Assembly: GCA_020429915.1 (NCBI GenBank)
Contig: JAGQKV010000031.1
Location: forward strand, 2,656 to 66,655
Direction: 5' to 3'
DNA: 64,000 bases
Origin: Candidatus Omnitrophota bacterium
GTDB taxonomy: Bacteria > Omnitrophota > Gorgyraeia > Zapsychrales > Zapsychraceae
Part shown: positions 37,032 to 59,151 of the stretch, one piece after another
Position numbering within the stretch: position 1 is the stretch's first letter
Layout: each line of letters begins with the position of its first letter
Program-made: the position numbers and the translations under genes
The notes under the pieces: generated by a model
Told to the model about the DNA's origin: nothing
The model's input: only the letters and a program-made list of their open reading frames with translations
The model's database searches: none

Positions 37032-37267
37032 ACGGTCTGACGTCGTCATGGGTGCTGGTGGGCATATTCTTGTGGGGGATGCCCACCGGTTTCGTGCTGA
37101 GTTTCTTGTTGGCCAGTGTCTCTTGGGACGGGGGATTGCACATCAGCGGATGGCAAGCGGAAACGTTTGGCCGGAATTGTCTGGTGTTATTGCCGCTGTT
37201 CGCCGCCGGCGGGGTCGGATTGGGTCTAACCATGGGGAGGATGTGTGAACGGGCCCGACGCCAATAG
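37028..37267 (+). CDS. hypothetical small membrane protein (2 TM)
   Basis: The 79-aa product has two hydrophobic helices and is translationally coupled (ATGA) to xseB. It overlaps the next gene by 23 nt. Confidence 0.25.
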   Translation: MNGLTSSWVLVGIFLWGMPTGFVLSFLLASVSWDGGLHISGWQAETFGRNCLVLLPLFAAGGVGLGLTMGRMCERARRQ

Positions 37268-38516
37268 CGACAACCGGCTGGATAAACTTCTGAAGACGCT
37301 GGGTCCCGGACTCATCTTTGCCGGCACCAGCATCGGGGTGTCGCACATCGTCCAGTCCACGCGCGCGGGCGCTGTCTATGGATTTGGACTGATCCTGGCC
37401 GTTATCCTTGCCAATCTCTTCAAGTATCCGTTCTTTGAATACGGGCCGCGTTACACCGTCGCCACCGGCGAGCATCTGTTGCACGGATATCGCCGTGTCG
37501 GCCGCTGGGCCTTCTACCTGTTTTGCGGTCTGTCGCTGTGTACGATGTTCCCCATTCAGGCGGCCGTCACTTTGGTGACCACGGGATTGCTGGCCAATTT
37601 GTTGAGCTGGCCGTTTCCGCCGGTAGTCCTGAGCGCGGTGCTGCTGACGGTGTGCTGTGTCATTTTACTGGCCGGGCGTTATCCGCTTCTCGACAAGTTG
37701 ATGAAGATCATGATCCTTTTCTTGGGCGTCTCGACAATCACGGCATTTGCGGCCGCGTTGATGCGCGGTCCCGCGGGGGTTCAGGGGGCGGGACAGGTTT
37801 TTTCTTTCGGGGATGAAAGGGACGTCGCTTTCCTGGTTGCGCTTGTCGGGTGGATGCCGACGACTCTGGAGATTTCCGTCTGGCATTCCTTTTGGTGCGC
37901 TGAGAGGATCAAACAAACCGGTCACCGTCCGTCGCTGCGGCACGCGCTGTTCGATTTTCATTTGGGCTATTGGGGGACCATGATCATGGCCCTGTTCTTT
38001 TTGGGGTTGGGGGCGCTGGTCATGTATGCTACCGGAAAGGAATTTTCCGGTTCCGCAGTTACTTTTACCGGCCAGGTCATCGAGTTATACACGGAGGCAT
38101 TGGGCCCGTGGAGCAAGTGGGTTATCGGCGTGGCCGCGGCCACGACGATGTTCAGCACCACTATCTGTTGTCTGGACGCCTTCCCGCGGGTCATCCGGGA
38201 GGTCTGCGTGATGGTGAATCCCGCGCTGGAGGATCGTAAGGAGAAAATCTACCTGGGTGCGATCCTGATAGTGGCGGCTGTCTCCACCGTGATTATCGGA
38301 TGTTTCGTGGGCCGCATGAAGGCCCTGATCGATTTTGCGACCACGTTGGCTTTTTTAGCCACGCCGGTCTTTGCCTACATTAATCTGCGGACCGTTACCG
38401 CGGGGAATGTACCCGTCGCGGCGCAGCCCAACCGGATCGAGATCGCCTTCAGCTGGTTCTGCCTGGCGGTCCTCACCGGGTTCGCACTGCTTTTCGTTTA
38501 CTCACGGTTTTTCTAA
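37245..38516 (+). CDS. NRAMP-like divalent metal cation transporter family protein (GTG start)
   Basis: It has about 11 TM segments and an N-terminal GPGLIFAGTSIGVSHIVQSTRAGAVYGF that resembles the Nramp GPG..DPGN...Q.GA motif region. I am not certain of the assignment. Confidence 0.5.
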   Translation: MNGPDANSDNRLDKLLKTLGPGLIFAGTSIGVSHIVQSTRAGAVYGFGLILAVILANLFKYPFFEYGPRYTVATGEHLLHGYRRVGRWAFYLFCGLSLCTMFPIQAAVTLVTTGLLANLLSWPFPPVVLSAVLLTVCCVILLAGRYPLLDKLMKIMILFLGVSTITAFAAALMRGPAGVQGAGQVFSFGDERDVAFLVALVGWMPTTLEISVWHSFWCAERIKQTGHRPSLRHALFDFHLGYWGTMIMALFFLGLGALVMYATGKEFSGSAVTFTGQVIELYTEALGPWSKWVIGVAAATTMFSTTICCLDAFPRVIREVCVMVNPALEDRKEKIYLGAILIVAAVSTVIIGCFVGRMKALIDFATTLAFLATPVFAYINLRTVTAGNVPVAAQPNRIEIAFSWFCLAVLTGFALLFVYSRFF

Positions 38517-38531
38517 CAACAAGGGGATGGA

Positions 38532-39980
38532 TTGAACTTCCGGGCAACACAAGCCGTCAAGGTGATGCACGCCGGCGCCTTGGTCGTCGCCGCGCTCGTC
38601 ATACTTGCGGTCAATGTCATCCGGTTTGCCGGCCTGGAACAAAGCCCTCCCGGATTCCATGTCGATGAGCTCTCCGGCGCAGTCACCGTCCAATGCCTTG
38701 AAACCGAGGGTGTCGATGCCACGGGCAAGCCGTACCCGCTTTTTGCCAATTTGAATTACGGCTCGCCAAAACCGCCGACCTATTTGTATCCCGCCATACT
38801 CTGGACACGTCTGTTCGGGCACTCGATCGGCAGTTACCGGGCCTTCTCGGCATTTATCACGGTGATGGCCATCGGGATGCTGTTTGCGCTGGCCCGCCGG
38901 ATGTTCGGTTGGGAAGCGGCGGTTTGGGCGGCACTCACGGCCAGTCTGTCGCCGACGGTCTTTCAGATTTCACGAGTCGCCCTCGAACCGGGACTCGCGC
39001 CGTTTTTTGTCATGGCCGGTATATTTTGCTTGCTCGGGCGCCGGCCCTACGTCGGCGCGGTGTTAGGCGGCTTGATGTTCGCGCTGGCCATGTATTCCTA
39101 TCCGCCCGCCCGATTGTTTGTCCCGCTTTTCCTGATGTTGTTTGTCGTCACCCGTTGGCTGCGCGGGTCGCGCCGGCTGGGACCGGTCTTTGCCCTCGGT
39201 GCCGCCCTGGTCATAGTGAATATTCCGCTGGTACTGGGAACATTGTCGGGGGAATACATGGGGCGGTTCAATAAAATCGGCATTTTCTCGGAAGAATTTC
39301 TGGCCGAGCAGGGAAAGGCCCGTCGTCTAAAAGATATCGCCGGGATTTTTGTCCAGAATTACGCACAACACCTCCGACCGGATTTCTTGTTTATCAACGG
39401 CGACGAGAATTTCGTATATTCCACCGGCCGCTTCGGGCTGCTGGGATGGCTTGACATGTTGGCGCTGGCCCTGGGGATTGTCCTTGTCATTTTCGAGGTG
39501 TGCCGGTCGACGCGCGGGGCAAGCCGGCTGAAGTTATCCGATATTACGGTGAGTGTTGAGTTGATCGGAGGTATCCTGTTAGCGATCGTGCCGGCGGCAT
39601 TGACGTGGCAGGATATCCCGCACTCACTGCGCATGCTGCTTTATTGGCCGTTCCTGGCTTTGCTAAGCGGATGGGTCCTGTCAACGCTTTGCCGCCGGGC
39701 GCCTTTTGTGGCGCCGGTGATCCTCGCGGTCGCGGTCGGATTCGGGACGGTTTATCTGCGTCACTATTTCAAAGTTTACCCTGAACGTGCGTACTATATG
39801 TTCAGCACGTTCACCAAGGATGAGGCCCTGTCCGCCCGTACACAGGAAGACTGGATGAAGTTCATGTATCGCTACCGGCGACAGGATTATCATACACGCT
39901 ATTACATGATGAATTTTCTTAAGGGGCAGACCTGCGCATCGTCGCAGCGCGCGTGGCAAGAAGTCCATAAAATTCCTTAA
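38532..39980 (+). CDS. GT-C fold glycosyltransferase (family 39/83; ArnT / PMT-like)
   Basis: It is polytopic, with a DE motif in the first periplasmic loop (HVDELS) and a hydrophobic core typical of ArnT/PMT/undecaprenyl-phosphate-sugar-dependent transferases. Confidence 0.68.
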   Translation: MNFRATQAVKVMHAGALVVAALVILAVNVIRFAGLEQSPPGFHVDELSGAVTVQCLETEGVDATGKPYPLFANLNYGSPKPPTYLYPAILWTRLFGHSIGSYRAFSAFITVMAIGMLFALARRMFGWEAAVWAALTASLSPTVFQISRVALEPGLAPFFVMAGIFCLLGRRPYVGAVLGGLMFALAMYSYPPARLFVPLFLMLFVVTRWLRGSRRLGPVFALGAALVIVNIPLVLGTLSGEYMGRFNKIGIFSEEFLAEQGKARRLKDIAGIFVQNYAQHLRPDFLFINGDENFVYSTGRFGLLGWLDMLALALGIVLVIFEVCRSTRGASRLKLSDITVSVELIGGILLAIVPAALTWQDIPHSLRMLLYWPFLALLSGWVLSTLCRRAPFVAPVILAVAVGFGTVYLRHYFKVYPERAYYMFSTFTKDEALSARTQEDWMKFMYRYRRQDYHTRYYMMNFLKGQTCASSQRAWQEVHKIP

Positions 39981-40011
39981 ATTTCACATCGAAATCTCTA
40001 TAATAAGTCGT

Positions 40012-41577
40012 ATGCTCAACCCGCCCGTGCCTGATATCTCGATTATAATCCCCGCCAAAGATGAGGAGCGGCGTCTGCCGACATTCTTGCTGGATGTGAT
40101 CAGTTTCTGTCAGGCATCTGCACAGCAATACGAAATAATTGTGGTCGATGACGGCAGCCGTGACGGAACATCGGCTGTGGTGGAAAAGTTTCAAGCCAAG
40201 TTTGCCCGCCTGCATCTGATCGTCTTGAAAAAAAACAGAGGGAAAGGGTATGCCGTCAAACAGGGCGTCCTGCGGGCCCGCGGGAATATCGTCCTGTTTA
40301 TGGATGCAGACGGGTCCACGCCGCCGAGCATGATCGAAGAGTATACACCGCTGTTGTCGGGGGGGAACGATATCGTGATCGGTTCGCGGGTGGTCGCCGA
40401 TGAGAAGCATCGCGTGCAGGCGCGCGGTTACCGTAAACTTGTCGGGCAGGTGTTTAATTATTTTGTCCACCGGTTCTTGATGCCCGATATCATGGACACG
40501 CAGTGCGGGTTCAAAATGTTTCGCCGTGAGGTGGTCCGGCCGCTGTTCGGACGCCTGAATATCAAAGGCTTCGGGTTTGATTTGGAACTGCTTTATTTGG
40601 CCCGGCTGTTGGGCTACCGCGTGGCCGAGGTTCCGGTGGATTGGCGGCATGTGGACGCGTCCAAAACAAATTTGATCAGCGATTCCTGGCGGATGTTGAT
40701 GAATATCTTTCAAATCCGCAACTGGCATGCCTACAGCGGGGCCGTCATGGCACGGCACATGAGCACCGCGGAGATCGACGCCATGCATAGCGCCGAGGAG
40801 GATCACTGGTGGTTTCAGGCGAAGCGGAATCTGGTGCGGCAGTTGGTCGGGCCGCTTGGCGGAACCCGGCCGCGGTTACTGGATGCCGGATGCGGCACCG
40901 GACTGAACCTCCGGCAGTGGGATGCCTCCGCGGAATGTTTCGGCTGCGATGCCATGTTTCCTGCTCTGCAACACACGCGGGGCGCGGGGGGCGGCTGTCT
41001 GGCTCAGTGCGATCTGGAACGATTGTGCTATCGGGACGGGACTTTTGATGTTATCACCGCGCTCGACGTGATTGAGCATGTTCCGGATCCGGAACGGGTG
41101 GTGGGGGAAATCAGTCGGGTCCTGAAGGCCGGCGGGCGAGTGATTATTACGGTGCCGGCATTCAAATTCCTATGGAGCCCGCATGACGAGGCCTTGAGTC
41201 ACTTCCGCCGGTACCATCGCCGTGAGCTACGCGGATTACTTGAAGACGCGGGATTGCCGGTCGTTCGGATGGGATACCATTACTGTGCGGTTTTCTTACT
41301 CGTCGCACCGTTGAGAGTTTTCAAGCGTCTTTTTAGCGGACAGGAGCGCCCCCGTTCCGATACAGCCGTGCCGCCGCCACCGTGGGTGAACCGCCTTTTG
41401 GCCAGATGGCAAGGCTGGGAACTCGCCTTATCGCGTTATCTGTCCTTACCATTCGGGACGACGCTTTACGCTATCGTGGAAGGGCGTCCGTCTGTATCCA
41501 ATATCAGCTATCGGTTCCAGCGGCCGGAGGAGTCCGCTGTCTCGCCGGACGGCCTGCTTCAACCCACGGAATCATGA
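40012..41577 (+). CDS. bifunctional GT2 polyprenyl-phosphate glycosyltransferase (ArnC/DPM1-like) fused to a class I SAM-dependent methyltransferase
   Basis: The N-terminal GT-A has ISIIIPAKDEE...VVDDGSRDGT...MDADGS (DxD). The C-terminal half has LLDAGCGTGLN (SAM motif I) and ...VLKAGGRVIITVP. The 521-aa frame is continuous. Confidence 0.75.
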   Translation: MLNPPVPDISIIIPAKDEERRLPTFLLDVISFCQASAQQYEIIVVDDGSRDGTSAVVEKFQAKFARLHLIVLKKNRGKGYAVKQGVLRARGNIVLFMDADGSTPPSMIEEYTPLLSGGNDIVIGSRVVADEKHRVQARGYRKLVGQVFNYFVHRFLMPDIMDTQCGFKMFRREVVRPLFGRLNIKGFGFDLELLYLARLLGYRVAEVPVDWRHVDASKTNLISDSWRMLMNIFQIRNWHAYSGAVMARHMSTAEIDAMHSAEEDHWWFQAKRNLVRQLVGPLGGTRPRLLDAGCGTGLNLRQWDASAECFGCDAMFPALQHTRGAGGGCLAQCDLERLCYRDGTFDVITALDVIEHVPDPERVVGEISRVLKAGGRVIITVPAFKFLWSPHDEALSHFRRYHRRELRGLLEDAGLPVVRMGYHYCAVFLLVAPLRVFKRLFSGQERPRSDTAVPPPPWVNRLLARWQGWELALSRYLSLPFGTTLYAIVEGRPSVSNISYRFQRPEESAVSPDGLLQPTES

Positions 41578-42440
41578 ACGTGAGGCCTCGGCTTTTTACC
41601 GTCGGTTGCATGTGTTTGCTGGGGATTTCCCTCGCGGGATGCGCGAACCGGGAAAAAGGACCGGATTGGCAACTGCGTCAAGCACGACACGACCTGCAGA
41701 CGCGAGACTATCAGCAAGCCATGGTTCACGTCACCAGGGCCCTCAACCTGCGGCCCGGTTACGGGCCGGCCTATTTGGTGCGCGCCCGGGTGCACGAAGC
41801 CCAGGGATTTTTGGCCATGGCCCTCGACGATTATGCCCGGGCCTTGGATTCACCGGAGGATCGGGCGGAGGCCCTGCGCCGAAGCGGCGATTTGTTTCGA
41901 CGGCTTGGCCGCTATGCCCAGGCCATTTCCTCTTACGAACAGTTAATTCGCGATGACCCTGACGACGTTGAGGGTTATCTAGGACGGGCCGGAGTATTGA
42001 TCAAACAGAAGCGTTACGAGCCGGCCCGGGAGGATCTGCGCCGCGCCGAAGGGATACGCCCCGATGATAGCCGGATCGCTGCGGCCTTGGGACAGCTTTT
42101 TGAAGCCCAAGGCAAATTTTCGCGAGCGTTGCGTGAATACGAACGGGCGGTTTCCCTAGATAAACAAAACGTGGATACGCGAATTTTGTTGGGTACTTTG
42201 CATGCCCGTGAAAACCGGATCGAAGAGGGATTGGCGGCATACGGGACGGTTCTGCAAATGGACCCCGGGAGGGGCGATGTGTACTACAAGCGCTCTTTTT
42301 TACACCTGGCCGCCGGTAACTATGGCAAGGCGCTGGATGATACGGTGCGAGCGCGTTTTTTAGGGGAGGAGGTGGATGCCGCGTATGTATCCCGCCTGAA
42401 ACAACAGGTGCAAGAGCGGGCCGCGGATGCCGGGCCGTAA
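41574..42440 (+). CDS. TPR-repeat lipoprotein
   Basis: The lipobox is LAGC (MNVRPRLFTVGCMCLLGISLAGCAN). There are at least 6 TPR-like 34-aa repeats. I placed the start at 41574, overlapping the GT2-MT stop. Confidence 0.6.
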   Translation: MNVRPRLFTVGCMCLLGISLAGCANREKGPDWQLRQARHDLQTRDYQQAMVHVTRALNLRPGYGPAYLVRARVHEAQGFLAMALDDYARALDSPEDRAEALRRSGDLFRRLGRYAQAISSYEQLIRDDPDDVEGYLGRAGVLIKQKRYEPAREDLRRAEGIRPDDSRIAAALGQLFEAQGKFSRALREYERAVSLDKQNVDTRILLGTLHARENRIEEGLAAYGTVLQMDPGRGDVYYKRSFLHLAAGNYGKALDDTVRARFLGEEVDAAYVSRLKQQVQERAADAGP

Positions 42441-42545
42441 AATAGTTGTTGCCATCTGCCGCGGCCGTGATATATTCTAAAATCTCCTTTCCGTTACATT
42501 TCATCAATTTTCCCGTGTCGTCCCGCGTTTACGTGCCGACATTTT

Positions 42546-42619
42546 GCGCCTGTAGCTCAGTTGGATAGAGCACCAGTCTTCGGAACTGGGTGTCAGGGGT
42601 TCGAATCCTCTCAGGCGCG
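42546..42619 (+). tRNA. tRNA-Arg (anticodon TCG)
   Basis: I folded it manually. The acceptor is GCGCCTG/CAGGCGC, the D-arm GCTC-AGTTGGATA-GAGC, the anticodon arm CCAGT-CTTCGGA-ACTGG (anticodon UCG) and the T-arm AGGGG-TTCGAAT-CCTCT, with discriminator G. Confidence 0.85.
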
Positions 42620-42738
42620 TTTTACTTTTCCCCGCGACTCTCGTCGTACATGAAATGTCTTTACAATGAGAAAAGTTTTTTATAAGATACACCCGAATTA
42701 ATTCACCGGAACATATCCGTCTCAATTTCAAATTCGAC

Positions 42739-48367: not shown

Positions 48368-49702
48368 GTGACCTTCCACTTTATGACCCTTCATTCACCG
48401 ACATTCCGTCGTTCCGGAAAGGCGTTTCTTTTGCTTATGACGGGATTGACTCTCACCTCTCTGTGCGGGCGCACCGTGGTGCCGGTCCGGGCTCAATCTC
48501 AGTTGGGAGGAACCGGGGCATCCGACGCGAAGAGTAGCGAAACCTATCAGGAGTATCTGGCATTCTTCCGGGAAGTTTTCGATATCATGCGGGAGAATTA
48601 TTACAAGGATATCGATGAGGAAGACTACGACCGGTTTTTGCAAACTTTTGACCAGAAGATATTCGCCCAGCTTAAGGGGGAGGGGAAGTCGAATGACTTT
48701 GTTCGCTGGCGCAGCGCCGCATTTCTGGTCGACTTTCTGAAAGAAGACGACGATATTTTTTCCGCTTTTTATCCGCCGAAACCGGCCAAGGAGTACGAAG
48801 AAACTGCGCTGGGTAAGCGTATCGACCTTGGCCTGGAGGGAGAGCTGCTGCCGGTCGGTTTCCGGCTGACTTTCGTTGAGCCGCGCTCGAATGCCTACCA
48901 GCTGGGAATGCGGGAAAACGACTTGCTAGTCATGATCGATCAGGCAGAAGTGAGCGGTCTCAGCGAGGAGGAAGTGCGTGATCGCTTGCGGCCACTGGAA
49001 GATACGGTCGTGTCGCTGGTGTATTTGGACGGTCAAACCCGGGAGTCCAGGGGAGTCGATGTGGTTTCCGAAGAGTACTTCAAACAGGCGGTGTTCGACG
49101 TTCCCATTCCTGTGCCGGGGATTTATTGCCTGAAAATTGAGCGGTTTAACCGAAAAACTTTTGAGGATGTCTTTCGGTTTCTCACTTTTTATCGTCAACA
49201 TGGGCCGATCAAGGGGTTGATTATCGATTTGCGTGGAAATCCCGGTGGTCCGCCGTTGGCGGCCCGTGAAATCTCATCATTTTTCCTGCCGGCAGGAGAG
49301 GAATTTGCCTATTTTCAGAGGAACAACAAACCGAAGGCCGAATTGGATGTCCCCGAACTGCCCCAGGAACATCATTACGACGGCCCGCTGGCGATCCTTA
49401 TCGACGAGGGCAGCGGCAGTGCCTCGGAGCTTTTTTCAGGAGTTATGCAACAGCGCCGGCGCGCCGTTTTGCTAGGTGAAAACTCCGCCGGGCAGGTGTT
49501 TCTCAAAAGTATGTTTCCGCTGGAAGATGAATCTATGCTATTATTAGTTACCGCACGCGGCCACTATCCTGACGGCCAAGTCTTCAGCTTTCAAGGTTTA
49601 ACTCCGGACCGGCACGTGGCCAGCATGAATCAGGATGACATCCTCAAGTACGCGGCGACATACATTCTCTACGTGAACCAGAAAGACAACGCATCCCTAT
49701 GA
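48368..49702 (+). CDS. S41 family peptidase (C-terminal processing / tail-specific protease-like)
   Basis: It has a signal peptide and a PDZ-like middle. The catalytic region is IDLRGNPGGPPLAAREISSFF (Ser), with ...DEGSGSASE.... Confidence 0.72.
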   Translation: MTFHFMTLHSPTFRRSGKAFLLLMTGLTLTSLCGRTVVPVRAQSQLGGTGASDAKSSETYQEYLAFFREVFDIMRENYYKDIDEEDYDRFLQTFDQKIFAQLKGEGKSNDFVRWRSAAFLVDFLKEDDDIFSAFYPPKPAKEYEETALGKRIDLGLEGELLPVGFRLTFVEPRSNAYQLGMRENDLLVMIDQAEVSGLSEEEVRDRLRPLEDTVVSLVYLDGQTRESRGVDVVSEEYFKQAVFDVPIPVPGIYCLKIERFNRKTFEDVFRFLTFYRQHGPIKGLIIDLRGNPGGPPLAAREISSFFLPAGEEFAYFQRNNKPKAELDVPELPQEHHYDGPLAILIDEGSGSASELFSGVMQQRRRAVLLGENSAGQVFLKSMFPLEDESMLLLVTARGHYPDGQVFSFQGLTPDRHVASMNQDDILKYAATYILYVNQKDNASL

Positions 49703-50457
49703 AAAAGGCACCCGGCCTCAAGACGCTTCAGTCCGAAAAGGGCGCAGTAAATCAAGCGCGACTCCTGATCGTCGTGCCTGCCTATAATGAGGAAGGGAGT
49801 ATCCGCGCGGTGGTGTCCGATATCATTTTGTCTCCTTGGAATTTGGATGTGTTGGTTGTGAACGACGGATCGACGGACCAAACTTTTGAACAGGCGAGGG
49901 CCGCAGGAGTTAATGTGATTTCGCTACCGTTTAATCTGGGTATCGGCGGGGCGGTCCAAACCGGTTTTCAATTTGCCCTGCGTCAGGGTTACGATTTGGT
50001 GGTCCAAATGGACGGCGACGGCCAGCACGATGTCGATTTTCTCGGTACTCTGGTTAATCCCATATTGAACAATGAAGTGGATATGACGATAGGAAGCCGT
50101 TTTATCCCGCCGTATCTCGGCTATCAATCTTCGTTCGTGAGGAGGATCGGCATTAATTTCTTTGCCCGATTGTTAAGTGCTTTAACCGGATCCCCGGTGA
50201 CGGATCCGACCAGTGGATTCCGGGCCTATAACCGGAAAATGATCAATATTTTCGCCCGGTATTATCCGCACGATTTTCCGGAGCCGGAAGCTATCGTCGT
50301 GGCCGGGAGATACGGCGCGCGCATTCGTGAAGTCCCGGTGACCATGCGGGAGCGGCAAGCCGGTTCGAGTTCGATCCGTTATTTTAAAACGTTGTACTAC
50401 ATGCTCAAAGTGACACTCGCCATTTTACTGGGCCGGTTTAAGACCAAGAGGGGATAG
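49699..50457 (+). CDS. GT2 glycosyltransferase (polyprenyl-phosphate sugar synthase, GtrB/DPM1-like)
   Basis: The motifs LLIVVPAYNEEGSI...VVNDGSTDQT...QMDGDGQHD (DxD) are present. Confidence 0.75.
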   Translation: MKKAPGLKTLQSEKGAVNQARLLIVVPAYNEEGSIRAVVSDIILSPWNLDVLVVNDGSTDQTFEQARAAGVNVISLPFNLGIGGAVQTGFQFALRQGYDLVVQMDGDGQHDVDFLGTLVNPILNNEVDMTIGSRFIPPYLGYQSSFVRRIGINFFARLLSALTGSPVTDPTSGFRAYNRKMINIFARYYPHDFPEPEAIVVAGRYGARIREVPVTMRERQAGSSSIRYFKTLYYMLKVTLAILLGRFKTKRG

Positions 50458-50463
50458 CGCGAC

Positions 50464-50847
50464 ATGATCATCAAATTTATAACGGTGAGCGCAGGTTTGA
50501 TGATGGTTGTTTTTGTGCTCGAGTTGATCCGCAAAGAGCGTTTGACTTTTAAATACGCGTTTGCGTGGCTGGGTGTCGGTGCCTTGCTGGTTTTCTTTGC
50601 CGTTTTCGACGGGCTGTTGTATCAACTGGCATATGCTTTGGGATTTCAATTGCCCAGCAATTTTATATTCTTCAGTCTCTCCGGAGTTTTTGTGGTGTTG
50701 AGTTTCCTAATGACGGTTTTTTTGTGCCAGCAAAATGAGCGTAACGATTCCATGGCACAAAAAATCGGAATTCTTGAATTTGAGATCCGCCAACTGAAAG
50801 AAGAGCTTGAGCTAAAGGAAAGAGCGCATGAAAACCAAAAATCTTGA
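50464..50847 (+). CDS. DUF2304-like small membrane protein
   Basis: It has 3 TM helices and a C-terminal coiled coil (EFEIRQLKEELELKE). It lies downstream of a GtrB-like GT2, which is a recurrent pairing. Confidence 0.45.
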   Translation: MIIKFITVSAGLMMVVFVLELIRKERLTFKYAFAWLGVGALLVFFAVFDGLLYQLAYALGFQLPSNFIFFSLSGVFVVLSFLMTVFLCQQNERNDSMAQKIGILEFEIRQLKEELELKERAHENQKS

Positions 50848-51499
50848 ATTGCCCGGGGCTCAGGATTGGAACCATTACTGGGAACGGGGGCAAACCCAGC
50901 GCTTCACCCGTGTCAGCTGGTCCAAGCGGAGGATCATTCGGATGCTGCAGCCGTACTTGAAGACCGGGTGCCATGCGCTCGATGCCGGTTGCGGAAGCGG
51001 ATTCTTTTCACAATTCTTTTGCGAAAGCGGAATGCGCGCCACAGCCCTCGACTACTCGCGGTCTGCTCTTGAAATTGCCGGGTCCAAGACCCGGGGCCGT
51101 GCCAAACTGGTCCAGGCGAATTTGGTGGAAGATGACCTGTCTGTTAAGTTAACGGACCGTTATCACCTCGTTTTTACCGACGGACTTTTGGAGCACTTTG
51201 TTCCCGCCGACCAGGACCGTATTATCCGCAATTTAATGAGTATCCTCGTCGACGATGGCGTGATTGTCACCTTCGTTCCCAACCGCTGGTCGCCGTGGGA
51301 GCTCATCCGACCGCTTTATATGCCGGGCATAAAAGAAGACCCCTTCCGTTTGGGGGAGCTGGTCGACCTGCATGAGCGGAATCATCTTAAGGTCCTCGCC
51401 CGCGGCGGGGTCAATACGGTTCCTTTTGCTTTTTCCCCCGACGGACTCTTCGGTTCGGTTTTCGGGATGTTATTGTTTACCATTGCCAAATTACGATGA
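50828..51499 (+). CDS. class I SAM-dependent methyltransferase
   Basis: Motif I (ALDAGCGSGFFS) is present, as is motif post-I (…ALDYSRSALE). Confidence 0.7.
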   Translation: MKTKNLELPGAQDWNHYWERGQTQRFTRVSWSKRRIIRMLQPYLKTGCHALDAGCGSGFFSQFFCESGMRATALDYSRSALEIAGSKTRGRAKLVQANLVEDDLSVKLTDRYHLVFTDGLLEHFVPADQDRIIRNLMSILVDDGVIVTFVPNRWSPWELIRPLYMPGIKEDPFRLGELVDLHERNHLKVLARGGVNTVPFAFSPDGLFGSVFGMLLFTIAKLR

Positions 51500-52479
51500 C
51501 ACAACCATCCGTTGCGGTCGTCATTCCCGCTTTTAACGCTGAGCAGACCTTGCCTTTCTGTTTGCAGGCGGTAACATCTCAGAACATCCCCCCTCAGGAA
51601 ATTATCGTTGTGGACGACGGATCCTCAGACCGGACTTCGGCCGTGGCCGGTTCTTTTCCCGAAGTGCGCTGTGTGCGACAGGATAATGCCGGGCCGGCAG
51701 CCGCCCGCAACCGCGGTCAGCGCGAGACCGGGGCGGATATCGTTTTGTTCACGGATTCTGATTGTGTTCCGGCTCCCGATTGGGTGGCTGCGGCAGCGGC
51801 CGGGTTTGTGAGGGAAGATATCGGGGCTGTGGCCGGAAGCTACGATATCATCAATCCCGGGTCGCGGCTGGCTCGCTGCATTCACGCGGAGATTTTGTAC
51901 CGGCATCTGCGCTTGCTGCCGGAATATCCCCGGGCTTTCGGGAGTTTTAACGTGGCCATTCGGCGGGATGTCTATGTCGGGGTGGGTGGTTTTGACGAGT
52001 CGTATCCGGCGGCCTCCGGAGAGGATAATGACCTGAGCTACCGGATCCGGCGGGCCGGGTATAAGATCCGCTTCGATCCCCGTTCGCGGGTCGGCCATCA
52101 CCACCCGGAACGGGTCGTGCGTTATCTGCGGGAGCAGTTCCGGCACGGTTTCTGGCGGGTTAAAATGTACCGCGCACATCCGCATATGGCCGGGGGGGAC
52201 GATTATACTTTCTGGAAGGATATTGCGGAGGTGGGGTTGGCGGGATTGACAGGATTGGCGTTGCTGATTTTACCGTTCGGTCTGCCGGCTGTGTGCGTGG
52301 TCGTCTTGGGTGGAGCCCTCATGCTGCTGCAAGCAGGTTTCTGTTTCCGGATCTGTCCTAACATGTTTGACGGAATTTTTTACTCGCTGGTATTGTTTTT
52401 GCGTGCATTCGCGCGTGCCATAGGTTTCTCGTCGGGGATGTTGTCGTCATTCGGCCGCCGAAAAACAAAAAAAAGCTAA
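51496..52479 (+). CDS. GT2 glycosyltransferase with C-terminal membrane helices
   Basis: It has VVIPAFNAEQTL...VVDDGSSDRT...FTDSDCV (DxD) and two C-terminal TM segments. Confidence 0.72.
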   Translation: MTQPSVAVVIPAFNAEQTLPFCLQAVTSQNIPPQEIIVVDDGSSDRTSAVAGSFPEVRCVRQDNAGPAAARNRGQRETGADIVLFTDSDCVPAPDWVAAAAAGFVREDIGAVAGSYDIINPGSRLARCIHAEILYRHLRLLPEYPRAFGSFNVAIRRDVYVGVGGFDESYPAASGEDNDLSYRIRRAGYKIRFDPRSRVGHHHPERVVRYLREQFRHGFWRVKMYRAHPHMAGGDDYTFWKDIAEVGLAGLTGLALLILPFGLPAVCVVVLGGALMLLQAGFCFRICPNMFDGIFYSLVLFLRAFARAIGFSSGMLSSFGRRKTKKS

Positions 52480-52995: not shown

Positions 52996-53616
52996 ATGAT
53001 TTTGAAGAAGAAAGAAACTGCTGAGCAAAAGCTCCTTAAAATGATCGAGGCGTCTTCCGGAGATGCCGGCGCGGCGTCCCGTGCACAACGCAAAACGTCT
53101 CGCCAGCAAGATGCTTTGTCTCTGCTGAAGACGTTCAACAGTCTGTTGCTGATTTTGATTGTCGGGGTGGCCGTCCTTGTCGGTCTCGAGATCAAAAAGG
53201 GCATGGACATCATGGGAGCGGGCATAGATATCCAGGCGGAACGGGGGATGACAGACTCGATGGACGGTGACAAAGTGCATACGGTCCAAAAATTACCGTT
53301 TTATCTGGCCGGTGTAAACCGTCGCAACATTTTCCGGCCCTATGACGAACAGATCTTTGCCGACGTCAGCCCTGTTCAGGAGCTAATGACCATTACCCGC
53401 AAGACCGAAAATCTTCGTTTGGTAGGGATTTCCTGGATGGATCGCGTCGAAAGCGCCTCGGCGATGATTGAAGATACCGAAAAGCAGGTCACCTACTTCC
53501 TGCAAAAAGGTGAAAAAATCGGCAATATCGAAGTCAAGACTATCTACGCCGACAGCGTGGAACTTGCTCTTGAAAACGAGGAGATGATACTGAGATATGA
53601 CAAACCACAACTGTAA
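52996..53616 (+). CDS. bitopic membrane protein upstream of secretin (possible PilP/GspC-like accessory)
   Basis: The 206-aa product has a cytoplasmic N-terminus, one TM (LLLILIVGVAVLVGL) and a periplasmic domain. It overlaps the secretin start by 20 nt. The AT-rich upstream has TATAAGATTATAACTATATG. Confidence 0.35.
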   Translation: MILKKKETAEQKLLKMIEASSGDAGAASRAQRKTSRQQDALSLLKTFNSLLLILIVGVAVLVGLEIKKGMDIMGAGIDIQAERGMTDSMDGDKVHTVQKLPFYLAGVNRRNIFRPYDEQIFADVSPVQELMTITRKTENLRLVGISWMDRVESASAMIEDTEKQVTYFLQKGEKIGNIEVKTIYADSVELALENEEMILRYDKPQL

Positions 53617-55198
53617 AAAGACTGTACGACGGCGAGCATTTCTCCCGCTCTTGGGCGCCCTCGCGTTGGTTGCCGGTAATTCCACGTTCGCGGCGGCGCA
53701 GGCCCCGCGTCCGATCCAGGTAAAAAACTACGAAGAAGAGATACTTAAACGTATGCAGCGGACGATCACCCTGGATGTCCGGGATATGAACATCGTCGAC
53801 GTCATCAAGTTCCTGGCCCTGAAAGGGGATTTCAATGTGGTCATTTCCCCAACCGTCGAGGGAAGATCGACAGTCTTGTTGAACAGCGTGACCATTAAGG
53901 ATGCGCTTGATATCGTTATTATTTCCAATAACTTAGCGTATAAGATTCAGGGTGAGATTGTTCAGATCATGACTTCTGCCGAGTATGAATCGATGTTCGG
54001 TAAACGTTTTGGCGATCAGACGGTCGTGGCCATTGAGCGCCTGAATTATGCCAAGCCCAGTTACGCTCTGGCCGCGCTGGACAGCATTAAGAGCAACGTT
54101 GGGCGCATTATTATAGATGAAGACACCGGGTCGGTGGTTATGATCGACACCCCCGAATCCATCGCTAAAATGCGTCAGGCCATCCAGGAGATCGAAAAGC
54201 CTTTGGAAACATATATTTACACGCTCCAGTATGCCAGCGCGGACGTGGTGGCCAATAAGTTGCGCGCGCGCATTGATGCCAAGGCTGTCGGTTCGATCAC
54301 GCCCGATGAACGCTCGAACAAGCTCATCGTCCGGGCTTTTCCCGAACGCCGCCGCGAAATCGAAATGATCGTGAAGAAGCTCGACTCTCCCACAAAGGAG
54401 GTGCTAGTCGACGCACGTATTCTCCAAGTCGTTCTCAATCCGGAGTATGACGTGGGCATTGATTGGAACAAGGATTTTCGCAAGAGCGGTGACGATGAAT
54501 TGCGAAAGCTCCAATTTAACAACATTTATCTCAATGCCGACAATTTGTCCAATAGTGACAACCTGGCCAATACATTCGGTCAGGTTGCCTTCGGGGATAT
54601 CAATGTTGATTCATTTGAGCTGACTTTGCGCGCCTTGCGCCAAGTCAGCGAAACCAAGATCTTGTCCAATCCCAAAATCCTGGTGACCAATAATGAAGAA
54701 GCCAAGATTCACATCGGCGATACGGTTCCGTACATCATATCCACCACTTCGGGAACAGGAGACAATGCGATTACAAGCGAAGATGTCCGGTTTATTGATG
54801 TCGGTCTCAAACTCAACGTGACGCCGATCATCAATGACGAAGGCTTTGTGACCATGCGCCTGCGTCCGGAGATCTCCACTATTGTCGGTGTCGTCGAGTC
54901 ACAGGGCGGCGGCATCCCGCAGGTGAATAAGACCGAAGTGGAAACGACGGTCATGGTGCACGACGGGCACAGTATTGTCTTGGGCGGACTTAAAAAAGAT
55001 GACCGGGTCCACTCCAAGAAGGGCTTTCCGGCACTAATGGATGTTCCGGTCATGGGGGCTCTCTTTGGCCGGACATCCGATGAGTATGCTCAAACCGAGA
55101 TCGTTATATTTCTGACACCGCACGTTGTTAAAGGCCACGAAGATTACGCGCAGATGAATGGCAACATCAAACCTTTTAAATCGTATAGTAACGAATAA
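53597..55198 (+). CDS. outer-membrane secretin (T2SS GspD / T4P PilQ family)
   Basis: It has a signal peptide and an N0-like domain (NIVDVIKFLALKGDFNVVISPTVEGRSTVLLNSVTIKDALDIVIISNNLAY). The C-terminal secretin domain carries ...KILSNPKILVTNNEEAKIHIGDTVPY... and ...SIVLGGLKKD....IVIFLTPHVV. Confidence 0.8.
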   Translation: MTNHNCKKTVRRRAFLPLLGALALVAGNSTFAAAQAPRPIQVKNYEEEILKRMQRTITLDVRDMNIVDVIKFLALKGDFNVVISPTVEGRSTVLLNSVTIKDALDIVIISNNLAYKIQGEIVQIMTSAEYESMFGKRFGDQTVVAIERLNYAKPSYALAALDSIKSNVGRIIIDEDTGSVVMIDTPESIAKMRQAIQEIEKPLETYIYTLQYASADVVANKLRARIDAKAVGSITPDERSNKLIVRAFPERRREIEMIVKKLDSPTKEVLVDARILQVVLNPEYDVGIDWNKDFRKSGDDELRKLQFNNIYLNADNLSNSDNLANTFGQVAFGDINVDSFELTLRALRQVSETKILSNPKILVTNNEEAKIHIGDTVPYIISTTSGTGDNAITSEDVRFIDVGLKLNVTPIINDEGFVTMRLRPEISTIVGVVESQGGGIPQVNKTEVETTVMVHDGHSIVLGGLKKDDRVHSKKGFPALMDVPVMGALFGRTSDEYAQTEIVIFLTPHVVKGHEDYAQMNGNIKPFKSYSNE

Positions 55199-55895: not shown

Positions 55896-57512
55896 GTGGT
55901 ATCATTCGGTAGGTCCTACAGTCACATGCGAAATTTATTTTTAGTCAATCTTCAGATCCCCTCAATATTATTTATATTATTGTTTTGCGGATCCGACGCC
56001 CTCGCCAGCAATCTCTCCGTGTCCAATGTCGCCATCGCCTCCCGTAATCCGTCAACCAAAAAGCTGACCGCCACGTTCGATCTTACCTGGGAAAACGCCT
56101 GGAAAACCAAAATCAACCACGATGCTGTATGGGTCACGCTCCGTCTGCATAAGGCAGGAGCCAATCCCGTGGCCAAGAAATTGTGCCCGTTGTCGGCCTC
56201 TGGTCTGAACCCCGCGGGTACGGGAACCGGCACATCCCCCAATATCGAAGTTTATGTTCCCGCGGACAAAGCCGGGGCGTTCTTCCGTTTATCCGACTAC
56301 GGCATCCGGCCTGACGTCGTTTCCCAGGGCGTACAACTGGAGATCGATTACGAAGCCTGCGGATTCGCGGCGGATGACTCGGTCTATCTAAGTGTCTTGG
56401 GGCTTGAGATGGTCTACATCCCGAAGGGTGCTTTCTATGCCGGTGACTATGGGACAAGTACGGCGGTTTTGACCGAAGGCAGCGCGGATACCGATCCGTG
56501 GCACCTTACATCAGCCGGGCCTTTGTCCGTTTCCAACCCGACCATGGACGGCTACCGGTATTCCGCCGTCGGCCACGCGGGCGAGGATGCCTCCGGCAGC
56601 GCCTTCTCGGTACCGGCCGCATTTCCCAATGGTTATAAGGCGTTTTACGTGATGAAATATGAGTTGACTGAGGGACAGTGGGTTGAATTTCTGAATTCAC
56701 TGCCATCCGCGGCGGCGCGTGCTCATCATGATTTGACCGATAATAATCACAAAAACAGCGACGCGGTACGTGCCAGAAACACTGTCAGTTGTTCCGGGTC
56801 TCCGGTAACCTGCTCGACACAACGGCCCTACCGGGCGGCAGGTTATTTGTCGTGGATGGATCTGGCGGCTTTTCTGGACTGGGCGGCCCTGCGCCCCATG
56901 ACTGAACTGGAATATGAAAAGGCCTCCCGCGGACCGGTCGTTCCGGAAGAGGGCGAATTTCCCTGGGGAGACCAAACGATAACCGCCGCAAACACCGTGA
57001 CGACAGGCGACGAAGGCGGGGCCGAACGCGTCCTGACAACGGGCGCTAACGCCCACTTCGGTAGCGCCGTAATCAGCGGCGGTGATTCCGTGTACGGTGC
57101 TGAATACGCATACGGCCCCTTGCGCCAGGGGATTTTCGCCGGTTCCGAATCCACCCGTGTTAGCGCGGGCGCCTCCTATTACGGTGTCATGGAGCTTTCC
57201 GGAAATGTATGGGAACGGACCGTGACCATCGGCAATGCCAGCGGTCGTAATTTTGCCGGTACACACGGTGACGGGATGCTTTCCACGGCAAGCGGTTTCG
57301 AGGGATACGCGAATCAATCCGATTGGCCGGGAATTAATCCTACGCCGGCCCGCGGAGTGGACGGCGCCGACGGATCGGGGTACCGGGGCGGAAGTTTTGC
57401 CGCGTCCCAGGGGACGCTGCGCGTATCCGACCGTTCCAGGGCCGCGGAGACCAACACCGCCGCATCTTCCGACAGCGGCGGCAGAGGAGTAAGGACTGAT
57501 GATGCCAATTGA
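55896..57512 (+). CDS. secreted FGE-sulfatase (SUMF1/GldJ/GldK-type) domain protein, paralog A
   Basis: It has a signal peptide. Strong FGE-family motifs are present: YVMKYELTEGQWVEFLN, ...GYLSWMDLAAFLDWAALRPMTELEYEKASRG (WxDAxAYxxW...PTEAEWE pattern), GNVWER and YRGGSF. A novel ~170-aa N-terminal domain precedes them. Confidence 0.7.
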   Translation: MVSFGRSYSHMRNLFLVNLQIPSILFILLFCGSDALASNLSVSNVAIASRNPSTKKLTATFDLTWENAWKTKINHDAVWVTLRLHKAGANPVAKKLCPLSASGLNPAGTGTGTSPNIEVYVPADKAGAFFRLSDYGIRPDVVSQGVQLEIDYEACGFAADDSVYLSVLGLEMVYIPKGAFYAGDYGTSTAVLTEGSADTDPWHLTSAGPLSVSNPTMDGYRYSAVGHAGEDASGSAFSVPAAFPNGYKAFYVMKYELTEGQWVEFLNSLPSAAARAHHDLTDNNHKNSDAVRARNTVSCSGSPVTCSTQRPYRAAGYLSWMDLAAFLDWAALRPMTELEYEKASRGPVVPEEGEFPWGDQTITAANTVTTGDEGGAERVLTTGANAHFGSAVISGGDSVYGAEYAYGPLRQGIFAGSESTRVSAGASYYGVMELSGNVWERTVTIGNASGRNFAGTHGDGMLSTASGFEGYANQSDWPGINPTPARGVDGADGSGYRGGSFAASQGTLRVSDRSRAAETNTAASSDSGGRGVRTDDAN

Positions 57513-59151
57513 TATGAGACCTGCCTTGCGATTCGTTCTGGGAACAATGACATCTTTAGCCCTCATTTTTCCGGGAACCGCGCTGGCCAATCACCTGCAA
57601 ATCGATAACTATGAGGTGACGGCGATCGACGAGGCCAGCAACATGATGACCTTTACCGGAGATTTCATGTGGGAAAACAGCTGGCGGAATGTCAACAGCA
57701 ACGACGCGGTCTGGGTCTTCGTCAAATATTCCCTCGACGGCGGAGCGACCTGGAACCACGCCAGCATGACATCCAGCGGACTCAATCCCATCGGCTTCGC
57801 CGCTCCGGCGGGCTTCCAGATCGTGGTTCCCAATGACGAGCGCGGATTTTTTCTGGAACCGACGAGCTTCAGCAGCGGTGATGTAAATGTCCAGGGGGTC
57901 AGATTTTCCTGGGATTATGCCCAGGACGGTCTTAGCGATGAACAGGCTATGGCGGCCAATACGATCACCAAGGTTTTCGGTATCGAAATGGTCAAGATTC
58001 CCGAAGGCGCCTTTTACGCGGGCGACGGAAACAGTTCCTCAGCGCATCGCTTTAAGCAAGGTTTGGGTGACAACGATCCGTGGTATATCGAAAGTTCCGC
58101 GGCAATCAATGTCGCCAACGCAGGTAGTGACGGATATTACTACCAAAGCGCCGGAGCCAGCGGAGAGAGTGCCACCGGATCCTCATTCCTGATACCCACG
58201 TCATTTCCCAAGGGTTACAGCGCTTATTATGTGATGAAGTATGAGTTGACTGAAGGGCAATGGGTCAGCTTTTTTAATACTTTAAGTTACGCGCAAAAGA
58301 TGAACCGCGATATTACGGCCGCCAGCCGTGGCGGCAAAAATGCCGATACGATCGTTAACCGCAACACGGTGAGTTGGGATTCCGGCAATCCGCGGGCACA
58401 GGCTAGTACGTCCCGGCCAGACCGCCCGGTGACCTACATCTCGTGGCCGGATTTACTGGCCTACGCCGACTGGGCGGGATTGCGGCCCGTTACCGAACTT
58501 GAGTACGAAAAAGCGGCGCGCGGCGTCGATGTCTTGCCAACAGCTGATGAATACGCCTGGGGCAAGTCGACGTACAACGACGCTCAGGCCGGTGAAATCT
58601 ATCCGAACGCCGACGAGACCGGTCAGGAGCAGATTTTCGACGGTGCGGCCAATCTTAACCGTAACGCGCTCAGCTGGTCATCGGGAGACGGACGGCCCGG
58701 CGGCCCGGCGGACGGACAGAAGGGGCCGCTGCGGGTCGGTATTTTTGCCGAGGACTCCACCAACCGGGTGACGAGCGGCGCCGGATTCTACGGCACCATG
58801 GAGTTGTCCGGCAACCTGGCCGAAATGGTGGTATCGGTCGGCCGTACGGAAGGGCGCAATTTTTTGGGTTCGCATGGCGACGGTATTCTCTCCAGCGCCA
58901 CCGGATATGCCGGTAACGCGACCAACATTGACTGGCCGGGGATTGATCCGGTCGATCCGAACCGCGGCGTGACGTCCACGGTCGGTTCGGGGACCCGCGG
59001 CGGGGACTTTCAATCCGCGGATGTCAGACTGTTCCAGATTTCCACCCGGACTAACGCTACGCGCGACCCGGATAGTGAGGGGTACTACCAGCGTTTCGAT
59101 CCGGCGTTCGGGGTATTCCAGGGGGGCCGTCTGGCTCGCACGGCTCCTTAG
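57499..59151 (+). CDS. secreted FGE-sulfatase-domain protein, paralog B (tandem duplicate of A)
   Basis: It is collinear with A, sharing the YVMKYELTEGQWVSFFN, ...YISWPDLLAYADWAGLRPVTELEYEKAARG, MELSGN and TRGGDF motifs and the same N-terminal domain (…WENSW…NHDAVWV…). It overlaps A by 14 nt. Confidence 0.7.
   Translation: MMPIDMRPALRFVLGTMTSLALIFPGTALANHLQIDNYEVTAIDEASNMMTFTGDFMWENSWRNVNSNDAVWVFVKYSLDGGATWNHASMTSSGLNPIGFAAPAGFQIVVPNDERGFFLEPTSFSSGDVNVQGVRFSWDYAQDGLSDEQAMAANTITKVFGIEMVKIPEGAFYAGDGNSSSAHRFKQGLGDNDPWYIESSAAINVANAGSDGYYYQSAGASGESATGSSFLIPTSFPKGYSAYYVMKYELTEGQWVSFFNTLSYAQKMNRDITAASRGGKNADTIVNRNTVSWDSGNPRAQASTSRPDRPVTYISWPDLLAYADWAGLRPVTELEYEKAARGVDVLPTADEYAWGKSTYNDAQAGEIYPNADETGQEQIFDGAANLNRNALSWSSGDGRPGGPADGQKGPLRVGIFAEDSTNRVTSGAGFYGTMELSGNLAEMVVSVGRTEGRNFLGSHGDGILSSATGYAGNATNIDWPGIDPVDPNRGVTSTVGSGTRGGDFQSADVRLFQISTRTNATRDPDSEGYYQRFDPAFGVFQGGRLARTAP

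Follow-up and report, generated by a model that had tools for sequence, protein, structure and literature searches.

A candidate extracytoplasmic glycosylation operon of Omnitrophota with a glycosyltransferase-methyltransferase fusion

Organization of the operon

We analyzed a predicted glycosylation locus at positions 38532-42440 of a 64,000-nucleotide (nt) stretch of Omnitrophota DNA, the whole of which is referred to here as the window. Three genes running in the same direction on the plus strand fill this locus and encode a membrane glycosyltransferase of the GT-C type, a family 2 glycosyltransferase (GT2) fused to an S-adenosylmethionine (SAM) methyltransferase, and a tetratricopeptide repeat (TPR) lipoprotein. 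The loci of relatives are cited by L-numbers (L001, L013, L089, and so on). The operon has the following genes and features, with the evidence for each in parentheses and lengths in amino acids (aa):

38532..39980, plus strand: GT-C membrane glycosyltransferase, 482 aa, PMT_2/GT39-like (Pfam, AlphaFold, Foldseek, conservation)
40012..41577, plus strand: fusion protein, 521 aa, polyprenyl-phosphate-type GT2 followed by a class I SAM methyltransferase (Pfam, phmmer, Foldseek, AlphaFold2 [AF2])
40039..40725, plus strand: predicted GT2 catalytic domain and juxtamembrane helix of the fusion, residues 10-238 (motifs, phmmer, Foldseek)
40765..41481, plus strand: predicted SAM methyltransferase domain of the fusion, residues 252-490 (Pfam, conservation, secondary structure of the model)
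41574..41577, plus strand: ATGA overlap of the fusion stop codon and the TPR gene start codon (read from the sequence)
41574..42440, plus strand: TPR lipoprotein, 288 aa, with the lipobox LAGC at nt 41631-41642 (sequence, TPR matches)

The original prediction, made from the DNA letters alone, had named the domains of all three genes and described the TPR gene as translationally coupled to the fusion. Its domain calls were correct (Pfam PMT_2, Glycos_transf_2, Methyltransf_11, and TPR), and the ATGA overlap bears out the coupling: the start codon of the TPR gene is the ATG at 41574 rather than the mechanical open reading frame (ORF) start at 41382, and it overlaps the fusion TGA at 41575-41577. 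The GT-C gene starts with TTG, with AAGGGG just 5' of it.

The GT-C enzyme

The 482-aa protein matched Pfam PMT_2 (E 6e-10) and no NCBIfam model, ArnT included. Its AlphaFold (AF2) model has a mean confidence (pLDDT) of 91.5, and the best Foldseek matches were all GT-C enzymes, namely ArnT (5f15; E 3.5e-6), AglB, PglB, STT3, and Pmt4. The template modeling (TM) scores of these matches ranged from 0.47 to 0.51; hence, the protein is close to none of the matched enzymes in particular. The model indicates that it has the polytopic GT-C fold found in ArnT, PMT, and STT3. An identical database protein (100% identity), from a Candidatus Omnitrophica metagenome-assembled genome (MAG), is named "glycosyltransferase family 39 protein," and one homologue carries the NCBI name "ArnT family glycosyltransferase."

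GT-C enzymes of the PMT/ArnT class have their catalytic acidic residues in the first external loop. In the 482-aa protein, D45 and E46 (motif PPGFHVDE; nt 38664-38669) are invariant across 35 homologues and are placed after the first long helix (residues 2-30 of the model), in the first periplasmic loop; they are the predicted catalytic pair. Two cysteines are also conserved in most of the family: C55 (VQCL, in the first periplasmic loop; nt ~38694) and ~C466 (GQTC, in a small C-terminal periplasmic helical domain; nt ~39927). They may form a periplasmic disulfide.

The GT2-methyltransferase fusion

The second gene encodes two enzyme domains on one chain, and the AlphaFold model of the whole protein (pLDDT 92.5; predicted TM score [pTM] 0.91) predicts their arrangement confidently. 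Residues 10-177 matched Glycos_transf_2 (PF00535; E 8e-33). Among solved proteins, phmmer matched the GT2 half to ArnC (9hwj; E 1.3e-18), GtrB (5ekp), and archaeal DPMS (5mlz; E 4e-18), the last aligning through residue 240 and including the juxtamembrane helix; ArnC, DPMS, and GtrB were also the top Foldseek matches. Conservation in the fusion was assessed in 80 homologues (41-79% identity). All three residues of the DxD motif (D98-A-D100; nt 40303-40311) are invariant, as are D162 and Q164-K168 in the stretch D162-T-Q-C-G-F-K168, with T163 present in at least 90% of the homologues. The label given by JGI to homologues is "dolichyl-phosphate beta-glucosyltransferase." The GT2 half is thereby predicted to be of the polyprenyl-phosphate (DPM1/GtrB/ArnC) type, as the original prediction had proposed, with ArnC, DPMS, and GtrB closest by both sequence and fold.

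No transmembrane helices were predicted in the fusion, where the 19-residue Kyte-Doolittle maximum is 1.4, at residue 425, and no segment reaches 1.6. The C-terminal transmembrane helices of GtrB, ArnC, and archaeal DPMS are missing, the methyltransferase domain follows directly after the GT2, and the 250-aa GT2-only relatives likewise lack such helices. Human DPM1 has no C-terminal transmembrane helices either; therefore, their loss does not exclude a polyprenyl-phosphate GT2 function.

The C-terminal half matched Methyltransf_11 (PF08241; residues 290-379, E 3e-19) and PF13489 (E 4e-18), the matching Pfam families being Methyltransf_11/23/25/12. Its Foldseek matches were class I methyltransferases of small molecules, with RebM and AtmM as sugar O-methyltransferases and PmtA as a lipid methyltransferase among them, and the strand and helix order of the model agrees with a class I Rossmann-like methyltransferase fold. 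A lack of SAM-binding residues had been set beforehand as the finding that would speak against a methyltransferase, and these residues proved to be conserved in the 80 homologues. SAM motif I (D291-x-G-x-G-T-G297, here L-D291-A-G-C-G-T-G297; nt 40882-40902), D313, and E355/H356 are invariant or nearly so, and the same holds for a polar cluster composed of H265-W-W-F (265-268), H391-D392, and R399-R400-Y401. With these residues in place, the methyltransferase appears to be catalytically intact. According to the model and hydropathy, a hydrophobic/amphipathic helical hairpin (residues 425-440 and 457-474) is inserted ahead of the last strand of the methyltransferase fold.

Distribution and split forms of the fusion

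The fusion had been thought uncommon, a view that our searches did not support. It had 998 database matches, of which the best 120 all have both domains (42-79% identity), the named ones being mostly from Omnitrophota. Among species-representative genomes, full-length matches turned up in Omnitrophota MAGs and in one Deltaproteobacteria-labelled MAG. The fusion is a conserved Omnitrophota family, not a rarity.

In 12 genomes or loci of Armatimonadota, GT2 and methyltransferase are encoded by separate genes of ~250 aa each that are adjacent or overlapping, and the split methyltransferases retain the YWWF, GCGTG, and HD-AL-H-RRY motifs. Being fused in one phylum and adjacent in another, the two activities are expected to belong to one pathway. 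The methyltransferase does not always accompany the system: in L021, the GT2 paired with a member of the 482-aa GT-C family has no methyltransferase, and in L022 the GT2 partner of this family comes with unrelated methyltransferases, which suggests an optional modular add-on, as for a decorating enzyme.

Further arrangements were observed around these genes. An Omnitrophica MAG (PEWV01000047; L014, 6353-9193) encodes a 947-aa protein with the order GT2, methyltransferase, second GT2, and MetW-like methyltransferase, which looks like a tandem duplication of the fusion architecture; a PMT_2 GT-C gene lies immediately upstream. In the Armatimonadota loci L073 and L082 (~9065-12272), the split pair lies between a gene for a NAGPA-type phosphodiester glycosidase, on its upstream side, and a menaquinone gene of the futalosine pathway (VitK2_biosynth), on its downstream side.

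The wider methyltransferase family comprises 670 clusters at E below 1e-30, and the only name returned by a cluster look-up of its stand-alone members was "SAM-dependent methyltransferase." Two stand-alone contexts were sampled. One (L091) is a cluster for sugar modification, in which two epimerases are accompanied by a 322-aa GT2, a UDP-glucose dehydrogenase, and an aminotransferase. In the other (L090, Acidobacteriota), the methyltransferase gene lies near radical-SAM genes, one with a CofH_C domain, and PNP_UDP_1 genes, neighbours that we take to be Mqn-like.

Linkage to GT-C genes and transporters

To describe the genomic linkage, we counted 17 distinct Omnitrophota fusion loci, including the window and with L006/L015 (the Deltaproteobacteria-labelled MAG) taken as one. 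A GT-C gene adjoins the fusion in 13/17 of these, with flanks, orientation, and GT-C type varying. The adjoining enzyme belongs to the 482-aa family in the window, L089, L001, L013, L009, L010, and L017; has PMT_2 with C-terminal TPRs in L003 and L005; is a plain PMT_2 protein in L008 and L014; is a TMEM260-like protein with many TPRs in L011; and is a DUF2079 protein in L012. Two further loci of the 17 gave only weak YfhO or PTPS-related matches. We take DUF2079, YfhO, and PTPS_related to be members of the GT-C clan (Pfam CL0111). Relative to the fusion, the GT-C gene is divergent in L003 and L009 and downstream in L010 and L017, and three candidate GT-C genes surround the single synthase in L017. 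This pattern fits one donor synthase serving several transferases.

Transporter genes were also found beside the synthase. An EamA transporter gene lies immediately upstream of the GT2 gene in the Armatimonadota loci L052 and L070, with an untyped ORF of seven transmembrane helices in the same position in L063, and EamA genes lie beside the fusion in the Omnitrophota loci L003, L005, and L008, two of which also carry an NAD-dependent sugar epimerase or dehydratase gene. In Pseudomonadota, Bdellovibrionota, and delta-proteobacterial MAGs, GT2-only orthologues are fused at the N terminus to LPG_synthase_TM, an MprF-type flippase domain (L041, 8852-10765; L049, 8822-10801; L086, 6842-8686; similar lengths in L046, L057, L064, and L067). 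Together, the flippase-domain fusions and EamA neighbours argue that the GT2 product crosses the membrane. In L049, the gene after the flippase-domain/GT2 fusion encodes a Trm112-domain methyltransferase. Large membrane proteins near the Armatimonadota pairs were considered as GT-C candidates and were identified as CtaA/CtaB, NrfD, or an ABC permease.

Origin of the TPR lipoprotein

The N terminus of the TPR protein, MNVRPRLFTVGCMCLLGISLAGC, reads as a signal peptide with the lipobox L-A-G-C at residues 20-23 and Cys23 as the lipobox cysteine (motif reading). About six TPR repeats follow, with strong Pfam TPR matches; its NCBIfam TPR matches are generic (PilW, MamA, LapB, and BamD-like models). 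L001 and L013 have fusions 55-56% identical to that of the window and show the same wider gene order, from DUF3137 to the gcv genes; there, the gene that follows the fusion has a product of 677 aa, compared with 288 aa in the window. The window protein aligned with residues 443-675 of the L013 protein at 39% identity, gap-free over 233 aa and to the C terminus, and it matched only positions 440-664 of the 677-aa family profile. A search with this profile found no remnant of the family's membrane domain anywhere in the window. The lipoprotein thus appears, by alignment, to be the orphaned C-terminal TPR domain of a TMTC-like membrane protein with TPRs, and such a domain fission into a free TPR lipoprotein is new here. 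Fused forms occur in L001, L013, L003, L005, and L011. An origin of the lipoprotein signal peptide from the last transmembrane helix of the ancestor was considered and is not claimed, there being no gapless register to support it.

The N-terminal ~420 residues of the 677-aa family form a membrane domain of 9-11 helices, in which the FQFDD of loop 1 (D34-D35) is invariant in 29 sequences. The family of this membrane domain has over 4000 matches, almost always followed by TPRs, and JGI labels some of the 677-aa family members "protein O-mannosyl-transferase." In hhalign, the domain aligned with the 482-aa GT-C alignment at E 4e-4 and a probability of 35% over 303 colinear columns. Among four N termini of the family, one matched PMT_2 (E 1e-5) and one matched TMTC_DUF1736 weakly (E 0.07). 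Pairwise BLAST of the membrane domain to other GT-C proteins with TPRs was negative, as was phmmer against the PDB, and Pfam at E up to 5 gave nothing. The DD, S/T-R-P, and TKE motifs of the family resemble those described for TMTCs (PMC7801869).

The lipoprotein has been retained in more than the window. L089, with a fusion 79% identical to that of the window, encodes a 290-aa orthologue with the lipobox LVVGGC and the same 4-nt overlap. The two lipoproteins are 61% identical, with a nonsynonymous-to-synonymous ratio (dN/dS) of ~0.19, versus 74-79% identity and a dN/dS of 0.08-0.10 for the GT-C enzyme and fusion; synonymous sites are saturated, so these ratios are rough. They nevertheless indicate that the lipoprotein gene is kept by selection, under looser constraint than its neighbours. 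In L017, a small TPR protein is encoded immediately upstream of the fusion.

Proposed pathway and alternative explanations

We consider it likely that the operon encodes a lipid-linked donor synthase and GT-C system. The fuller reading takes the locus for a variant of the three-component extracytoplasmic glycosylation pathway, with the carrier-bound sugar as the probable substrate of the methyltransferase; it seems to us evenly balanced between being right and being wrong. Such a pathway would proceed in five steps: (i) on the cytoplasmic side of the inner membrane, the GT2 half would charge polyprenyl phosphate with a monosaccharide taken from a nucleotide sugar, as its fold, motifs, and context suggest; (ii) the methyltransferase half, held at the membrane surface by the helical hairpin, would methylate the sugar on its lipid carrier; (iii) a flippase encoded outside the window, probably of the EamA type as in relatives, would move the donor to the periplasmic face; (iv) the 482-aa GT-C enzyme would pass the sugar to a periplasmic acceptor, consistent with its fold, D45-E46, and conserved context; and (v) the coupled TPR lipoprotein may present the acceptor, as proposed for fused TMTC-type TPR domains.

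The second step is the least certain; its basis is that the two domains occur fused or split, that the active site is intact, and that sugar editing on the carrier is known from other systems, and we advance methylation of the carrier-bound sugar tentatively, with the balance tipping slightly toward doubt. Cooperation of the TPR lipoprotein with the GT-C enzyme is proposed with a little more reserve still; if the lipoprotein binds the acceptor or acts as a scaffold, the acceptor would more probably be a protein than lipid A. As for the original prediction, its cytoplasmic lipid-linked donor and periplasm-facing GT-C enzyme agree with the 13/17 linkage, the nearby EamA genes, and the flippase-domain fusions elsewhere, while its suggestion of a lipid A acceptor and a relation to Arn found no evidence.

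Several observations weigh against the proposed pathway. We know of no experiment or structure that shows a methyltransferase acting on a polyprenyl-phosphate monosaccharide. By phmmer and Foldseek, the methyltransferase half resembles many small-molecule methyltransferases about equally, most members of its family (~245 aa) stand alone, and the L090 context has no obvious glycan link. No GT-C gene was found near the fusion in 2/17 loci (L007 and L006/L015) or within 10 kb of the Armatimonadota pairs. No gene for a flippase of any recognised type was found in the window, including with profiles from the relatives' EamA genes; the flippase may be encoded elsewhere in the genome. Comparisons at the sequence level give modest support to the GT-C nature of the ancestral membrane domain, and the lipoprotein, evolving faster than its neighbours, may have an unrelated role.

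The target of the methyltransferase is where the closest alternative departs. In the same system, it could methylate a nucleotide sugar or another lipid or small molecule, or serve mainly as a membrane anchor or oligomerisation module in place of the transmembrane helices of ArnC and GtrB. The absence of such helices from the fusion and from its 250-aa GT2-only relatives, the confinement of the strongly hydrophobic helices to the methyltransferase half, and the presence of lipid methyltransferases (PmtA 8ys9 and UbiG) beside sugar O-methyltransferases among its PDB matches all favour this explanation, as do the menaquinone-pathway genes beside the pair in L073 and beside the stand-alone methyltransferase in L090. 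However, the SAM residues and the polar His/Asp/Arg/Arg/Tyr pocket are invariant in the 80 sequences and the split forms, which makes a purely structural role unlikely, and the methyltransferase is dispensable for the GT2/GT-C pairing in L021, as expected of a decorating enzyme. A menaquinone link was set aside since the genes concerned are on the opposite strand or not conserved across loci. On balance, we regard this alternative as unlikely. More improbable is that the product of the GT2-methyltransferase, for example a methylated glycolipid or a glycoside, stays as an end product in the cytoplasm or membrane and that the GT-C adjacency merely reflects conserved gene order. The window, L001, L013, and L089 do share synteny (DUF3137, macro domain, and xseA genes upstream; gcv genes downstream where the contig reaches), so that adjacency within this clade alone is weak evidence, and the Armatimonadota pairs have no GT-C gene nearby. 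Outside that clade, however, the flanks are wholly different and the orientation varies, yet a GT-C gene of some type adjoins the fusion, and export of the product across the membrane is implied by the EamA neighbours and the fusions to a flippase domain.

Two further alternatives concern the acceptor and the TPR protein. An Arn-like modification of lipid A or another envelope lipid, conferring resistance to cationic peptides, would account for ArnC and ArnT among the top structural matches and for the ArnT name of one homologue. We consider it very improbable: the fusion scored 73.6 bits with the ArnC equivalog model (NF007986) against a cut-off of 529, the GT-C enzyme had no NCBIfam match, OST and Pmt4 structures match it about equally to ArnT, no ArnA/B/D-like genes flank the operon, and it is protein-directed GT-C enzymes that typically have TPR partners, whether fused or free (PMC7801869). 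The NCBIfam scores and the lack of arnA, arnB, and arnD among the neighbours rule out a canonical Arn system. The lipoprotein could also be an evolutionary leftover that no longer has to do with glycosylation and now serves, for instance, as a general TPR lipoprotein in envelope assembly; it has lost the entire membrane domain, evolves faster than the neighbouring genes, and matches generic TPR profiles. On the other side, its 4-nt coupling to the donor synthase has been kept in two lineages whose fusions are 79% identical, its dN/dS of ~0.19 indicates selection, and the small TPR protein in L017 again lies next to the fusion. We think such a leftover rather unlikely, though it deserves serious attention.

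A broader form of the proposed glycosylation pathway would have Omnitrophota, and Armatimonadota through split genes, make a methylated polyprenyl-phosphate donor that feeds a set of periplasm-facing GT-C enzymes, many of them bearing TPR domains as the eukaryotic TMTC O-mannosyltransferases do, that decorate surface proteins, with the TPR lipoprotein as a trans-acting adaptor for a TPR-less GT-C enzyme. We offer this as a speculation that is unlikely to hold in full. The very long repeat proteins typical of Omnitrophota would be possible targets, and a methylated polyprenyl-phosphate monosaccharide would be a kind of donor not described before.

Glycosylation of this type matters widely, as polyprenyl-phosphate sugars used in the periplasm shape O antigens, teichoic acids, and lipid A, and eukaryotic protein O-mannosylation belongs to the same theme. 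The sugar edits on the carrier known to us are epimerisation and deformylation; if the proposed pathway is true, a methyltransferase fused or adjacent to the donor synthase would add methylation to them. The fusion, or the split pair, is a simple enzyme pair that can be tested in vitro, and the fission of a membrane protein with TPRs to give a free lipoprotein could offer a way to learn whether GT-C enzymes can be served in trans by TPR modules. To our knowledge, no cultured members of the Omnitrophota have been studied at this level, and the phylum has many TMTC-like GT-C/TPR genes; the locus offers a first handle on envelope and surface-protein glycosylation in this group.

Flanking genes and other features of the window

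Upstream of the operon lie a macro-domain gene, xseA, and an Nramp-like gene, and downstream a tRNA-Arg gene is followed by gcvT-gcvH-gcvPA-gcvPB and a lipoate-protein ligase gene. The two nearest neighbours are as follows:

37245..38516, plus strand: Nramp-like transporter gene (Pfam Nramp, E 7e-13; NCBIfam Nramp_1)
42545-42620, plus strand: tRNA-Arg (TCG), between the operon and the gcv genes, with a promoter-like site at 42449-42476

The Nramp-like gene comes after xseA and the small ORFs downstream of it, ends 15 nt 5' of the GT-C gene, and is probably co-transcribed with the latter. Although L089 has an Nramp-like gene at the same position, just two small ORFs occupy this place in the syntenic L001; the gene was therefore dropped as a system component and probably stands outside the glycosylation system. 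Apart from the promoter-like site before the tRNA gene, a promoter/terminator scan of the operon gave no signal above chance. Profiles built from the relatives' genes found no epimerase or dehydratase homologues in the window.

Further downstream, the window contains the giant repeat ORF that the original prediction had mentioned as encoding a possible acceptor. It is on the plus strand and extends from 59243 to beyond 64000 and so runs off the window end. It encodes at least 1586 aa, has a signal-peptide-like N terminus, and from ~61180 carries tens of copies of a 13-aa (39-nt) repeat, GINW(T/A/S)DI(D/Q)(V/A)LS(D/E)A. The product probably belongs to the very long surface proteins that have been described in Omnitrophota. 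The ORF lies 17 kb downstream of the operon, nothing ties the two together, and gcv, lipoate ligase, protease, GT2, secretin, and FGE-sulfatase-like genes lie in between. These include an unfused second set on the plus strand (49699-52479) that encodes a GT2 (252 aa), a class I methyltransferase (223 aa), and another GT2 (327 aa) and is weakly related to the fusion halves (profile E 2e-23, 9e-10, and 6e-15). It is followed on the same strand by genes for a GspC-like protein and a secretin of the type II/III secretion family (52996-55198), which separate this set from the FGE-like genes. Two plus-strand genes (55896-57512 and 57499-59151), immediately 5' of the giant ORF, encode ~540-aa paralogues with FGE-sulfatase (SUMF1-like) domains; the fusion in L006 has an FGE-sulfatase gene as a neighbour too.

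Comparison with known systems

Of the known pathways, we compared the locus with the three-component systems, namely GtrA/GtrB/GtrV in O-antigen glucosylation, CsbB/GtcA/YfhO in teichoic acid glycosylation, and the pentofuranose systems (PMC11127046). These systems, together with the on-carrier editing of DprE1/E2 and the xylofuranose system, provide the precedent for our reading (PMC11127046). As in them, a GT2 of the GtrB/DPM1 fold is genetically paired with a GT-C enzyme bearing an acidic motif in its first external loop, and a small transporter (EamA) occurs in the relatives' clusters. The locus differs in that (i) its donor synthase has a fused SAM methyltransferase and zero transmembrane helices, (ii) the operon has no dedicated small flippase (GtrA, SMR/EamA, or MATE), (iii) up to three different GT-C enzymes flank one synthase in relatives, and (iv) a TPR module accompanies the system.

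The proposed order of reactions resembles that of Arn (ArnC, ArnD, ArnE/F, and ArnT), in which a GT2 loads undecaprenyl phosphate, the sugar is edited on the carrier, and a GT-C enzyme makes the final transfer. The ArnD deformylase edits the sugar before flipping, for which Arn uses ArnE/F, a flippase of the broad transporter superfamily that also contains EamA. Unlike in Arn, the editing enzyme of the locus would be a methyltransferase fused to the GT2, and there are no ArnA or ArnB genes; the locus proteins fall far below the ArnC equivalog threshold, the GT-C enzyme lacks an ArnT match, and the acceptor is probably other than lipid A.

A further likeness is to the AglD/AglR/AglS route of Haloferax volcanii, where a GT2-made lipid-phosphate sugar (Dol-P-mannose) is flipped and used by an external transferase (PMC3871713). 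The same archaeal N-glycosylation pathway includes the SAM methyltransferase AglP, in a separate branch of dolichol-phosphate-linked oligosaccharide (PMC3871713). In contrast to the fused methyltransferase of the locus, AglP is a separate protein and serves the oligosaccharide branch, not a monosaccharide donor; the likeness drawn here is between pathways. AglP acts on the lipid-linked glycan.

Finally, the TPR partner recalls the TMTC1-4 and TMEM260 O-mannosyltransferases and their prokaryotic homologues, which combine a GT-C membrane domain with extracytoplasmic TPRs (PMC7801869, PMC10214176); in TMTCs, the luminal TPR domain is fused to the GT-C domain (PMC7801869). In the window, unlike in these enzymes, the TPR module is a separate lipoprotein, the TMTC-like membrane domain has been lost, and the sole GT-C enzyme has a PMT-type D-E motif and no TPR. 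The relatives carry fused proteins of the same general kind, 677 aa long with a loop-1 DD in L001 and L013 and TMEM260-like with TPRs in L011, and in the locus, as in TMTC/TMEM260, the donor would be a polyprenyl-phosphate monosaccharide.

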